Assembly: GCA_046717345.1 (NCBI GenBank)
Contig: JBKJVN010000153.1
Span: forward strand, 9,698-73,697
Length of the DNA stretch: 64,000 nt
Source of the DNA: Candidatus Limnocylindria bacterium
GTDB taxonomy: Bacteria; Chloroflexota; Limnocylindria; QHBO01
Reading direction: 5' to 3'
Position 1 is the first letter of the stretch; every line of letters begins with the position of its first letter. Both the position numbers and the translations under genes were made by a program. Below, in pieces: positions 59,636-64,000 of the stretch. The notes below the pieces were generated by a model that saw only the letters and a list, made by a program, of their open reading frames with translations, had not been told where the DNA came from and did not search any database.

Positions 59636-60391
59636 TCAGGTTCCCGGCGACGACCCCAGCGTCCGCTCCCGGTCGGTCCATAGCGCCCAGCGCAGCCGGA
59701 AGATGTCCCGGAAGGTGCGCATGATCTTCAGGAAGCTGGCGCCGGTGTTCTGTCCCGCGGTCCGCGGATAGTGGGTCACCCCCACCTGGTCCATCCGCAC
59801 GCCCCGCGCATTGAGCTTGATGAGCAGCTCGGCCGACAGGAACGGCCCCTCGGAATCCAGCCGCAGGCCGTCGAAGACGTGGCGTCGGAAGACCTTCATG
59901 GCGCAGTCGATGTCGCGCACCCGGAGCCCGAACAGGACCGACACGATGGCGTTGTAGGTCTTGGCGATGACGAGCCGATGGACGGGGTCGCGCCGCTTGA
60001 TGCGGTAACCGATGACGGCGTCGACCGGGCGCGAGGTGTCCGCGAGGCGATCGAGCAGCCGGCGCAGCTCGGCCAGGTCGAACTGGAGGTCGCCATCCGA
60101 GAAGGCGATCAGCTCCCCGCGGGCATTGGCGAACCCCGCCTGCAACGCGCCGCCGTAGCCGCGGTTGGGCTGGTGGACGACGCGGACCCGGGGGTCGGCG
60201 GCGGCCAGCTCATCGGCCAGCTGCGGGGTCCGATCGGTCGAGCCGTCGTCGATGGCCAGGACCTCGAGCGTGGCGGCCAGGGGCCCGACCTCGTCGATGG
60301 CCCGCGCCACCGTCCGCTCGATGTTCGCCTCCTCGTTGTAGGCGGGGAAGAAGAACGTCAGGGCGGGGCGAGCTGAGACCGATTCGTTCAC
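59636..60391 (-). CDS. GT2 glycosyltransferase, polyprenyl-phosphate mannose/glucose synthase-like (Ppm1/DPM1/GtrB catalytic domain)
   Basis: FPAYNEE...DDGSTD...DGDLQ (DXD)...HYPRTAG motifs. GTG start at 60391. Confidence 0.85.
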   Translation of the reverse strand: MNESVSARPALTFFFPAYNEEANIERTVARAIDEVGPLAATLEVLAIDDGSTDRTPQLADELAAADPRVRVVHQPNRGYGGALQAGFANARGELIAFSDGDLQFDLAELRRLLDRLADTSRPVDAVIGYRIKRRDPVHRLVIAKTYNAIVSVLFGLRVRDIDCAMKVFRRHVFDGLRLDSEGPFLSAELLIKLNARGVRMDQVGVTHYPRTAGQNTGASFLKIMRTFRDIFRLRWALWTDRERTLGSSPGT

Positions 60392-60431
60392 GGGCCTCCC
60401 TGGTTTTCGCAGCCGGTCAAGGGGTGGCGCG

Positions 60432-63400
60432 GATGGTAGCGGAACCCGGCGCTATACTCACCGCCGCCTTGCCGACCCGTCGTTTCCTCGATCCGTTCGG
60501 CACGCTCCTCGTGCTCTTACTCGCCGGCCTCGCGCTGCGCGTCCTCGTCGCGGCCGTGATCCTGCCCCTGAGCGGCTTCAACAACGACATCACCGCCTTC
60601 GGCGCATGGGCATTGCGCTTGGCCGACATCGGCCCCGGCGGGTTCTACGAGCCGGGCTATTTCGCCGACTACCCACCGGGCTACATGTACGTCCTGTGGC
60701 TGCTGGGCGAGGTTTCCCGCTTCCTGGAGCCCATCCTGGGGGCCAGTCCGATTCGCGGCCTGGTCAAGGTCCCGGGGATCGCCGCCGATCTCGGCGTGGC
60801 ATGGCTCATCTACCTCATCGCGGTCCGGTTCTTCGGGGATCGGCCGCCCATTCGCTGGCTCGGATCGGGCGCCCGAATTGGTCTCATCGGCGCCGCGGCC
60901 TACCTGTTCAACCCGGGGACCGTGTTCAACTCAGCGGTCTGGGGCCAGATGGACGCGGTCGGGGTCCTGGTCATCCTTGCCGGGCTGTACGCCCTGGGCC
61001 GGGGGTGGACCGAAACCGCCGGGCTGGCCGCCGTGGTGGCGCTCCTGATCAAGTTCCAGTTCGGCTGGCTCATCCCCATCGTGGCCGTGGTCGGGCTCAA
61101 ACGGCACCTGTTCGGTCGGTCATCGGACCCGACGCTCGCGGCCCGTCCCGATCCGGTCCGCGTCCTGACCTCGTTGGCGGTGGGGTTCGGAACACTGATG
61201 GCCATGCTCCTCCCCTTTGGGATGACCCTTCTGCCCACAGGGGATCCAACGACCGGCCTGATCGACAAGTTCCTGGCGGCAGCCAACCAGTACCAGGGGC
61301 TCACCATCAACGCCTTCAACCTCTGGCGCAACCCGTGGAGTGGACTTTCGCAGGTCCAACAATGGGGGAACGACCAGGCCATCGCCCTCAGCCTGGGCGG
61401 TCTGGGCGTGACGTGGGCCACGGTCGGGATCGCGCTGTTTGCCCTGGCGGCCATCGTCGCCCTGGTGGCGGTGGCGCGGCGCGACGACATGCAGGGCCTC
61501 CTCATGAGCTCGCTGACAATGGCGGTCGCCTTCTTCGCGCTGCCGACCCGGGTCCACGAGCGGTATCTCTTCCCGGCCATCGCGCTGGCGGCCCCGCTGG
61601 CGGGGACGGCCGTCCGGTGGGCGGTTGCGTTCGTGACCATCTCGGCCCTGTTCTTCCTGAACATCTACTGGGTCTACTCGGCCGACTGGTCGTACGCCTC
61701 CCCTCCGGTCATCAACCCCGGGATCAGGGGCGAGGCGTTTGCCCGCGACCCGTTGCTGGCCGCCACCGTCTTCAGCGACTTCGGCGTCTACCTCGTGTCC
61801 CTGAGCGCGGTGGTCGTGCTGGGCTGGATCGTCTGGCAGGCGGTGCGCCCGGAGGCTCAGCAGGGTACGGAGGCCGTCCCCGAGGTCGACGCGGAAGCGG
61901 CCGAGGTGGCCGCCGCGGCGACGAGCGCAGTCCGGGCGGCGCGCGGGCGCCCCGGCTGGCGTTGGCTGCGCCAGGACGCGGTCGCGGAAGACGAACGCGA
62001 GCCCCCGCGCCGGCTGGACCGATTGGATCTGGCCCTGGTCGTGGGCCTGGTGGCATTGGCCCTCGTATTGCGCCTGTGGCGGCTGGACGTGCCGCGCTCG
62101 ATGATCTTCGACGAGGTCTATCACGGCCGCACCGCAGCTGAATACCTGGCCAACTGGACCTGGGGCTGGGACCGCGACCCGTACGAGTGGACCCACCCCA
62201 TGCTGGCCAAGTACCTCATCGCCGCCGGCATCGTGGTCGCGAACCCGAACCAGGTGAGCGGCAGCACGGAGCTTGACGCGCCGGCCACGAGCTTGGCGGT
62301 GGCGCCCCAGAAGACCGCCTCGGCTTGGCCCGCGTCGATCGTGTTCACCTCGGACGGGAGCCGGACGATCGAGGCCCGCGACGCGTCCACCGGTGTGGTC
62401 GCGGACAGCTGGGAGGCCGATGGCCCGGTGACGAGCCTGGCATGGGACCCGGACACCGGCCGGCTCCTGGCCGGCCTGGGCGACAGCGGCACGATCGCGG
62501 CCTGGGACCTGAACGCGTTCCTGAGCGGAGGGGCGGAGCGCGCGCCTCCCGTGATCACGTTCGGCATCGAGACCGGCATGACCGGCGTCCTCCAGCTGCT
62601 CGTGCCGCTCAACGATTCGGTGCTCGTCGTGCGCGGCCCGGATGAGGTGGCGGTGTTCGAGCGGGCGACCGGAGCGGAGATGGCGCGCCGTGAGATAACG
62701 GTCAGCGCCATCACCTACACGAGTGCGGTGAGCGGCGACAACGAGGTCAGCGCGCGGGTCATCGTCATCGACCCCAACCGGGAAGTGGTCCTTTCGCTGG
62801 ACGCGGGGACGCTGCGGACCCAAACCACCGAGACGCCCGAATCTCCGCCGCTCGGGATGATGATGACCAGCGGGCGGGGCTCGAACCAGCTGATCTGGGT
62901 GCCGGTCGGTCCGCTGCCGGTAGACGAGGAGCACCCGGCCACGACCGGCGGCATGATGATCCTGCGCGGCGGCGGGATCATTCCGGACGACACGATCCCG
63001 CTCCCCGGTCCGGCCCGCGCCCTCGGCTGGGACCTGGTGGCCAACCTGGTGTATGTGGCCGGACCGCAGCAGGTATGGACCATCATGCCCCACGGGGACA
63101 GCCGCTCGGGGTACGCGGTCTACGACGAGACCCCAGTCGAGGGCGAGCCGCTGGCCCTGGCCTTCGACGTCAGCGACACCTCCCAGACCGATGACCACGG
63201 GCGGCTGATCGTGTCCACCCAGCGCGCCGACGGCGGCGCGCTGGTCAGCCTCGACATCGGCGACAACGCCTACGCCTGGCGCCTGGCGGCGGCGGTCTTC
63301 GGAGCCCTGCTGGCCGGACTGGCCTACGCCTTCACCGCGATGCTCTTCCGGCGCCGCTCGATCGCCATCCTGGCCGGCCTGTTCGTGGCCATCGACCTGA

Positions 63401-64000
63401 TGAGCTTCGCCATGAGCCGGATCGCCATGAACGACATCTTCGTCGCGTTCTTCATCGTGGCCGCCTACGCCCTGTTCTGGCCCATCTGGGGCGGCCGTTG
63501 GCTCCGGAGCGCGTGGTGGGTGCTGCCCCTGGTGGGGGTCATGATCGGTCTGGCCGCCGCGTCCAAGTGGGTGGGCTGGTACGCGCTCATCGGCCTGTGG
63601 TTCCTGGTCTTGCTTCGGTCCCAGCTGGGCCGATTCATCCTCGTGGCTGCGACCGGCTTCGCGGCGGTCGCGGTTGGCATGGGCGCCCCATGGCCCGATT
63701 CTCCGTGGCCGCCATGGGCCTTCACCCTCATCGCGCTCGCCGTGCTTGGCCTGGCACTGGCGGTGGCCTGGGTCCGGCCGGTGCGCCTGTCCGGCTCCGA
63801 GCTGTGGGCTGTCGCCTCGACCGGGGTGGTGGTTGGCGCTATCGGTCTGTCCTTCGTCCTCGCATTCCAGACCCTCGACTGTGGCGCCTCGCCGTGTCGT
63901 CAGCCAGGGGGCATCGTCGAGCTGGGCTTCGGGATCCTGTTCCGCGGCCTCGAGGCGCGGTGGCCGGCCATTGTGGCCCTCGGCATCGCGGCGTTCCTGC
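60432..64000 (+). CDS. Very large polytopic membrane glycosyltransferase, two fused GT-C-like domains (C-terminal PMT/GT39-like), 3' end outside window
   Basis: Hand translation is open from ATG ~60432 to the window end (>1180 aa). Multi-TM N-domain. Second domain begins ...LRLWRLDVPRSMIFDEVYHGRTAAEYL...WTHPMLAKYLIA (PMT DE-loop signature). Soluble insertion has WD-like repeats (SLAWDPDTGRLLAGLGDSGTIAAWDL). Absent from the ORF track because there is no stop in the window. Start +/-1 nt. Confidence 0.65.

Follow-up and report, generated by a model that had tools for sequence, protein, structure and literature searches.

The 3′ end of a 64,000-nucleotide stretch of DNA from a Candidatus Limnocylindria bacterium (GenBank assembly GCA_046717345.1, contig JBKJVN010000153.1; this whole stretch is called the window below) raises the question of what a single, very long reading frame does with two membrane-embedded glycosyltransferase modules of the GT-C fold and a soluble domain, encoded divergently from a family 2 glycosyltransferase (GT2). 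The frame, which we call the fusion gene, encodes an N-terminal GT-C module, a linker and a protein O-mannosyltransferase (PMT) module of family GT39, and the first external loop of the PMT module carries a beta-propeller (Table 1). We propose, with a probability of roughly 0.6, that the locus is a self-contained protein O-glycosylation machine, most likely for O-mannosylation, that serves the Limnocylindria envelope, with acceptors presented by the propeller and the first sugar elongated by the N-terminal module.

The fusion gene is genuine, and no product of chimeric assembly. The frame of the ATG at 60433 is free of stops from 60016 to the window end (1189 codons counted from the ATG), and the G+C content at codon positions 1, 2 and 3 is 0.68, 0.51 and 0.90 over 60433-63999, uniformly so across all 600-nucleotide slices. 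Two open reading frames (ORFs) listed for the same DNA, at 60606-62141 (+) and at 61120-63198 (-; 692 amino acids, antisense), give 0.89/0.70/0.49 and 0.91/0.51/0.68 at the same three positions; their G+C-rich position is shifted and they are therefore frame shadows, in a window of ~70% G+C. The initial annotation had described a gene open to the window end with more than 1180 amino acids, and the listed ORFs as wrong-frame and antisense, and was right on both counts. It had also called the gene missed by the ORF track; the gene is indeed unlisted, but this reflects a listing rule that omits ORFs running off the window, and not biology. A search with the 1189-residue fragment matched 734 database proteins. 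The closest full-length homologue (P0001, 1515 amino acids) is 89% identical with 100% of the query covered and, judged from its length, ~326 further codons are expected past position 64000. The full-length homologues listed are mostly ~1500-1650 amino acids long, with the same order of parts and with both PF02366 and PF16192, and the ORF is intact at 1200 amino acids or more in 45 of the 51 independent genome contigs in which a stop could be reached. It is the coding statistics, together with the ~734 homologues sharing this order of parts, that confirm the gene.

A second GT-C domain, opening with a PMT/GT39 signature loop, had been proposed from the motif pair FDEVYHGRTAAEYL...WTHPMLAKYLIA, which corresponds to residues 559-597 and holds the Asp-Glu (DE) motif at residues 560-561. 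This proposal is borne out by PF02366, which scores 67.3 bits (gathering cut-off 22.7) over two stretches with the insertion between them, the best one at residues 944-1113, and by PMT_4TMC (PF16192), a domain that falls past the window end and is carried by P0001 and by nearly all full-length homologues. A profile of the family aligns to yeast Pmt1/Pmt2 and to a fungal PMT, pairing FDEVYH with F76-D77-E78 of Pmt1, HPmLAKyl with HPPLAKML, SRiamnD with S183-R184...D189, and KWvG with KWVG; in the homologues, past the window end, ‘ieRatFqYHY’ aligns with Pmt1 ‘QRQMFLHHY’ (R649/F652). D560, E561, H588 and P589 are invariant, and the region of the first transmembrane helix (TM1) and the loop-1 helices is the most conserved part of the protein, at 72% mean identity. 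In M. tuberculosis Pmt, residues D74, D176, R441 and Y444 have been shown to be essential (PMC12331936); the counterparts of D74 and D176 are D560 and D1001, and those of R441 and Y444 are the Arg and Phe of ‘ieRatFqYHY’ in the homologues. The likeness to yeast Pmt1-Pmt2/Pmt4 (PDB 6P25/6P2R, 9E61) and to the M. tuberculosis enzyme covers PF02366, the loop-1 DE motif, the loop-2 Asp and KWVG and, in the homologues, PF16192 and the R-x2-F/Y motif in loop 5, and the module may, on this sequence evidence, transfer mannose to Ser/Thr.

The insertion that splits the PMT match lies in external loop 1, between the second loop helix (residues 590-603) and TM2 (residues 945-971), where yeast Pmt1 has ~30 residues. 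A soluble insertion of ~300 residues with WD-like repeats had been anticipated here. In an AlphaFold2 model of the 1189 residues (68 aligned sequences; mean predicted local distance difference test, pLDDT, 80.8) it forms 28 strands at residues 607-941, with the mean pLDDT of 10-residue blocks mostly at 88-97, and these make up seven blades of a WD40-like propeller. Foldseek matched it to RACK1 (4aow, target TM-score 0.77), UTP15 (0.77) and a bacterial WD40 protein (5yzv, 0.73-0.75) at E ~1e-8, with WDR5 also among the matches and target TM-scores of 0.7-0.77 overall. By sequence, the Pfam WD40 model (PF00400) found in it a single, sub-threshold repeat at residues 664-692 (E=0.009, 17-18 bits against a cut-off of 27), and a search of a large protein database with the propeller alone returned five fragments and was uninformative. 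All 67 aligned homologues keep the insertion (337-376 amino acids, 49% mean identity). To our knowledge, loop 1 faces outward in all studied GT-C enzymes, and because of this the propeller is presumably extracytoplasmic. Yeast PMTs carry a MIR domain in loop 5, whereas the Limnocylindria fusion has none there and has its soluble domain in loop 1; this loop would be a new place, and a WD40-like propeller a new fold, for an acceptor-side domain of a PMT.

The N-terminal module is more divergent. A Pfam scan gave the window module no match at E<=1, GT87 (PF09594) and Alg6_Alg8 (PF03155) included, and a PDB sequence search found none for the module, nor for P0001 as a single sequence; profiles and fold comparison were therefore needed. 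Modelled alone, the module reaches pLDDT 86.7 and a predicted TM-score (pTM) of 0.89, and it has the GT-C fold, in keeping with the multi-helix GT-C-like domain first supposed there, with ALG6, PIG-M and ALG3 as the top structural matches. A profile built from the module and 24 stand-alone relatives matches GPI-MT-I (5e-5) and ALG6 (3e-4) by sequence. In the ALG6 alignment D52 pairs with the Asp of ‘YGDFEAQRHW’ (SEQRES 87), which we take to be the catalytic base D69 (native numbering, an 18-residue tag being assumed); DYPP is common to both, K207 falls on the Lys of ‘CFKQMA’, and ‘VHERY’, which contains H375, is matched to ‘VHEK’. No substitution is seen at D52, Q172, D174, K207, R373 or H375-E-R-Y378 in 68 fused, 24 stand-alone and 22 distant fused relatives. 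In PimE, D58, K195 and H322 matter for activity (PMC12041525), and D52/K207/H375 parallel these three by order and spacing only, as compared by eye. Helix positions, loop charges and the locations of the invariant residues fit a layout of 12 helices with both ends inside, in which the first outer loop holds two juxtamembrane helices and the outer loops that join TM7 to TM8 and TM11 to TM12 are long; this layout matches the topology plan described for PimE. In comparison with PimE (GT87, PDB 9DM5) and ALG6 (GT57, PDB 6SNH/6SNI), sequence identity is 13%, and the window module differs in passing no Pfam model and in being fused to a PMT. The module is thus related to the GT87 and Alg6_Alg8 families and is assignable to neither; it may well be an active transferase.

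The linker that joins the two modules is the least constrained part, with pLDDT below 50 at residues 478-484 and 499-519, and with 34% mean identity and a length of 50-94 amino acids among homologues; the equivalent 59-residue stretch of P0001 has 11 Lys/Arg. Since the N-terminal module would begin and end inside, the Arg-rich linker would be cytoplasmic, as the PMT TM1 requires. At this junction the closest genome-contig relative (L006; DATKBC010000148.1, 91% nucleotide identity; its Pleomorphomonadaceae label probably reflects mis-binning) shows one in-frame TGA, at L006:7597-7599, equivalent to window 62014-62016 (codon R528), followed by a TTG and then by 987 in-frame codons to a normal stop. 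The codon at this site is CGA in the window and TGG in another relative, L001. Possible explanations for the TGA are an error in the consensus, a nonsense mutation of recent date by which the gene naturally splits into two proteins, and read-through.

The divergent partner was initially described as a DPM1/Ppm1-like GT2, and this description stands as to type: besides its GT2 family match (Table 1), its best solved relatives, over residues 12-230, are ArnC (9hwj, 2.9e-19), Pyrococcus DPMS (5mlz, 9e-13) and GtrB (5ekp, 4e-11), and the alignment runs through the interface-helix region. By type it is predicted to be a polyprenyl-phosphate sugar synthase. It falls below all NCBIfam equivalog cut-offs, the best being 75 bits for ArnC (cut-off 529) and 74.6 bits for a Dol-P-hexose transferase (cut-off 375), and since it reaches no sugar-specific cut-off, we do not assign its sugar, which is probably mannose. 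ArnC and GtrB have a C-terminal transmembrane hairpin, whereas the window GT2, with its 251 residues, has no strongly hydrophobic segment able to form a membrane anchor (maximum 19-residue hydropathy 1.5). Like Ppm1, DPM1, ArnC and GtrB it has the GT2 fold, and it is encoded beside its presumed consumer. The GT2 gene is upstream of, and divergent from, the fusion gene in all 59 homologous loci that have at least 4.5 kb of upstream flank. A scan of the 41-bp gap between the two genes found no sigma-70-type or terminator-like sites in it, and was uninformative.

The fusion is not the oddity that it was first taken for: an entire bacterial class has it as its standard form, and Paenibacillus has been said to have GT87-GT39 fusions. 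When one genome per species was scanned, at least 597 stretches encoding a relative came up, of which 80 were taken further; nearly all of these are labelled Candidatus Limnocylindria, Limnocylindrales or Chloroflexota, and the few odd taxon labels on short contigs probably reflect mis-binning. The fusion is a strongly conserved gene of soil Chloroflexota of the class Limnocylindria and appears to be a hallmark of that class. When the N-terminal module was used alone as a query it returned 3475 cluster representatives, and local profile scans distinguished four kinds of relative: stand-alone N-terminal modules of 440-530 amino acids; PMT fusions without the insertion (P0248, 1051 amino acids; P0260, 949 amino acids); a majority of fusions with an insertion of 290-400 amino acids at the same site; and some fusions in which the insertion is no longer recognisable as the present propeller. 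Stand-alone relatives match the GT87, Alg6_Alg8 or PIG-U models weakly, and some are labelled ‘glycosyltransferase 87 family protein’ by NCBI. Distant fusions do pass Pfam thresholds (L081 for GT87 at 40.2 bits, L082 for Alg6_Alg8 at 33.2 bits), and the relative P0142 passes both. Across 22 distant fusions, 30-40% identical, D52, K207, H375 and D560/E561 are unchanged in 22/22, and the Asp of external loop 2 is replaced by Glu in one (P0248). No obvious candidate for a separate propeller gene was seen among the neighbours of the insertion-free fusions L084 and L085. In L085, a metagenome contig, the insertion-free GT87-PMT fusion P0248 (L085:4979-9156) lies directly 3′ of a polyprenyl synthetase gene (PF00348), which is consistent with a pathway that depends on a lipid carrier.

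Which known system does this protein resemble? In actinobacterial O-mannosylation Ppm1 (GT2) makes the donor, Pmt (GT39) initiates, and PimE or another GT87 enzyme extends (PMC12757957). A preprint of July 2026 (bioRxiv 10.64898/2026.07.15.738315) reports that mycobacterial Pmt (Rv1002c/ML0192c) co-purifies with the GT87-like ML2687c/Rv0051, the propeller protein ML0810c/Rv3212 and the DivIVA-family ML1065. According to the same preprint, ML2687c/Rv0051 is without catalytic residues and pairs with Pmt as Pmt2 does with Pmt1; ML0810c/Rv3212, a periplasmic eight-bladed propeller, is predicted to cover the active site of Pmt in the manner of MIR domains; and in Paenibacillus, translational fusion joins the GT39 enzymes to a GT87 enzyme (UniProt V9WAU2), which puts GT87-family and GT39 modules in one chain as here, a likeness that we draw from the preprint's mention only. 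P0248 and P0260, both without the insertion, are examples of such fusions among the relatives. The mycobacterial complex and the Limnocylindria protein share a GT39 catalytic part, a GT-C partner of the GT87 kind, an extracytoplasmic propeller and, as we read the locus, the need for a GT2-made polyprenyl-phosphate mannose. They differ in that the mycobacterial parts are separate subunits whereas all three are in one polypeptide in Limnocylindria, a member of a different phylum; in that the mycobacterial propeller is a separate protein with eight blades, whereas ours has seven, is WD40-like and sits inside PMT loop 1; in that the second Limnocylindria GT-C module keeps the kind of catalytic residues that ML2687c is said to lack; and in that a DivIVA-family partner was not identified for the fusion. 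As all three kinds of part stand in one chain, the fusion offers gene-fusion evidence for the same functional unit as the mycobacterial complex. The window gene is best read as a single-chain version of the mycobacterial Pmt machine, and the complex of Pmt, GT87-like protein and beta-propeller is a closer analogy than the ‘two transferases in series’ of the initial annotation, whose interpretation is otherwise essentially right. We regard the gene as a useful natural fusion and not as a new category. The two GT-C bodies may pair in a dimer-like way, as in the yeast Pmt pairs, with the difference that here the partner body belongs to another GT-C family.

We therefore envisage the following sequence of events, as a proposal. 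A peripheral GT2 would charge polyprenyl phosphate on the cytoplasmic side with a hexose, which is probably mannose taken from GDP-mannose, and the resulting lipid-sugar, once flipped, would serve as donor. The GT39 module would then attach the first sugar to exported proteins at Ser/Thr, using the DE base of loop 1, the Asp of loop 2 and the Arg/aromatic pair of loop 5. The propeller, as an outgrowth of the catalytic loop outside the membrane, could select or gate the acceptor polypeptide, the role proposed for the MIR domain of eukaryotic PMTs and for mycobacterial ML0810c/Rv3212. The N-terminal GT-C module, tethered by the cytoplasmic linker, may be the pseudo-dimer partner of the PMT, the role proposed for ML2687c/Rv0051, and because its active site is intact it most likely draws on this donor, too, to elongate the O-linked sugar, as reported for mycobacterial PimE. 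Glycosylation would then be sequential, as first suggested.

Several observations weigh against this proposal. The final ~326 codons of the gene are outside the window, and the whole-model pTM of 0.60 bears on how the modules are placed relative to each other. P0001 scores 25.3 bits against the actinobacterial Pmt equivalog NF058602, whose cut-off is 800; the PMT module is, by sequence, a distant member of GT39 and not an ortholog of actinobacterial Pmt. The N-terminal module passes no Pfam model, and the structure closest to it is a glucosyltransferase, ALG6; for the GT2, ArnC gives a slightly better score than Dol-P-Man synthase does, and all equivalog cut-offs are missed. The mycobacterial propeller is eight-bladed and separate, so the resemblance may be analogy, and the mycobacterial GT87-like partner is said to be without catalytic residues, which means that partnering does not require activity.

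This last point leads to a reading in which the N-terminal GT-C module serves without catalysis as a scaffold or as a partner that recruits acceptors, and the PMT module alone transfers sugar; it has parallels in the role proposed for ML2687c and in PIG-U of the GPI transamidase. A degenerate module would, however, be expected to lose D52, K207 and H375, which align with the Asp, Lys and His of ALG6, and the whole invariant set is kept in fused and stand-alone copies down to ~30% identity; we think a purely structural role unlikely. Also improbable, in our judgement, is that the sugar is not mannose but glucose, an amino sugar or an N-acetyl sugar, or that the PMT-like module has a non-protein acceptor. 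The GT2, whose best solved and NCBIfam matches are both ArnC, and for which a halophile dolichyl-phosphate hexose transferase scores just as high, could be taken to point this way, as could the closeness of the N-terminal module to ALG6 and the great distance of the PMT module from characterised Pmt. Against it, all characterised GT39 enzymes transfer from polyprenyl- or dolichyl-phosphate mannose onto Ser/Thr (established knowledge; PMC12331936, PMC12757957), and the DE and R-x4-D motifs are present, as are, in the homologues, the R-x2-F motif and the PMT-specific PMT_4TMC domain. More doubtful is a reading in which each module acts on acceptors unrelated to those of the other and a shared lipid-linked donor is the sole reason for the fusion, the N-terminal module building a glycolipid, lipoglycan or polysaccharide (PIM synthesis is the primary role of PimE) while the PMT glycosylates proteins. 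Lipid-linked acceptors are used by PimE, ALG6, ALG3 and PIG-M (PMC12041525), and stand-alone copies of the N-terminal module are common; yet the fusion is kept with the same order of parts across deep divergence, mycobacterial Pmt is in physical association with a GT87-like protein (bioRxiv 10.64898/2026.07.15.738315), and PimE is reported to extend protein O-mannose too (PMC12757957). Of the readings considered only one is excluded, namely that the long ORF is an artefact, either an assembly or frameshift error that merges two or three genes (a caveat of the initial annotation) or a chance open frame in G+C-rich DNA: long spurious ORFs such as the 692-residue antisense one do occur in the window, and the close relative L006 has its TGA at the module junction, but G+C at the third codon position (GC3) stays high along the entire frame, the linker is free of stops in the window, full-length database proteins number in the hundreds and most independent contigs are intact.

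The proposed protein O-glycosylation locus lies downstream of a replication cluster, in the order dnaA, dnaN, recF, a DciA-like ORF, a gene for a protein of ~738 amino acids, a BFN-domain gene, the GT2 gene (-) and the fusion gene (+), and the synteny of dnaA-dnaN-recF with the glycosylation genes is kept in the long contigs of relatives (L001-L004). Among the 59 loci counted above, 58 have the BFN gene. In 40 of the 59 a TMEM260-like GT-C gene (PF11028, 5e-31) of ~550 amino acids lies between the GT2 and fusion genes (for example L003:6321-7970, - strand); PF11028 is named after a protein O-mannosyltransferase known from animals. A TMEM260-like gene was found nowhere in the window, and it is absent from the closest relatives of the window too. 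More distant loci add a 490-residue gene with a weak LA_3751/LA_3752 glycosyltransferase match, so that, with these two genes, some relatives have three or four GT-C modules at the locus.

The 738-residue protein is present in all the long contigs examined, has a hydrophobic helix near residues 328-346 and shows no relation to the propeller profile. Its listed start (56556, GTG) is, judged from homologues, ~100 codons too far upstream, and a 924-residue ORF on the - strand (54927-57701) that overlaps the gene is probably a shadow. Beyond the position where the window stops, the fusion gene of L001-L004 ends in an acidic low-complexity tail whose coding region shares ~170-180 nucleotides with a convergent gene (L001:12417-12599, L002:12546-12713, L003:12705-12875); this convergent gene is PspC/LiaF-like in L001 and L002.

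Table 1. Features of the fusion gene, its divergent partner and the genes upstream, in window coordinates (TM, transmembrane helix)
Feature	Position	Strand	Remarks
dnaA	52393-53883	+	upstream of the fusion locus
dnaN	54120-55289	+	
recF	55296-56486	+	
DciA-like ORF, weak	56497-56856	+	PF05258, E 0.0035
Conserved 738-residue protein	56853-59069	+	no Pfam family
BFN-domain protein	59089-59628		
GT2, predicted polyprenyl-phosphate hexose (probably mannose) synthase	59636..60391	-	251 residues; PF00535, E=1.6e-31
Divergent intergenic gap	60392..60432	.	41 bp, between GT2 and fusion gene
Fusion gene, 5′ 1189 codons	60433..64000	+	open frame, GC3 0.90
N-terminal GT-C module	60478..61845	+	residues 16-471; ALG6/PIG-M/ALG3/PimE-like; 12 predicted TM, N-in/C-in
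D52, putative catalytic base	60586..60588	+	tip of first juxtamembrane helix; HMMER alignment with ALG6
Linker, predicted cytoplasmic	61846..62019	+	residues 472-529; low confidence, variable, Arg-rich
PMT TM1 and first external loop helices	62020..62244	+	DE motif D560 E561 (62110-62115), HP(M)LAK
Seven-bladed WD40-like beta-propeller	62245..63258	+	residues 605-942; AlphaFold2 model and Foldseek
PMT core, TM2 onward	63259..63999	+	residues 943-1189; external loop 2 R996-x4-D1001 (63418-63435), K1045-W-V-G

Considering what the fusion means for the family, we tentatively suggest, as a possibility that we rate somewhat short of even, that it is a natural single-chain ‘Rosetta stone’ in which a GT39 initiator, a still-active GT87/ALG6-like elongator and an acceptor-gating propeller are physically coupled. 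This touches on open questions about PMTs in general: how substrates are chosen, whether dimers are needed, and how the first sugar is handed over for extension. Limnocylindria are known almost entirely from uncultured, metagenome-assembled genomes and their envelope biology is essentially unknown. If the suggestion is right, acceptor selection would have been solved independently a third time by the loop-1 propeller, next to the MIR domain and the ML0810c-type subunit, and the covalent link of the three parts, as gene-fusion evidence from another phylum, would independently validate the newly proposed mycobacterial complex. It would also provide a single gene with which structure and specificity could be studied, expressible without reconstituting subunits, and the coupling of initiation to elongation would be ancestral in Terrabacteria.

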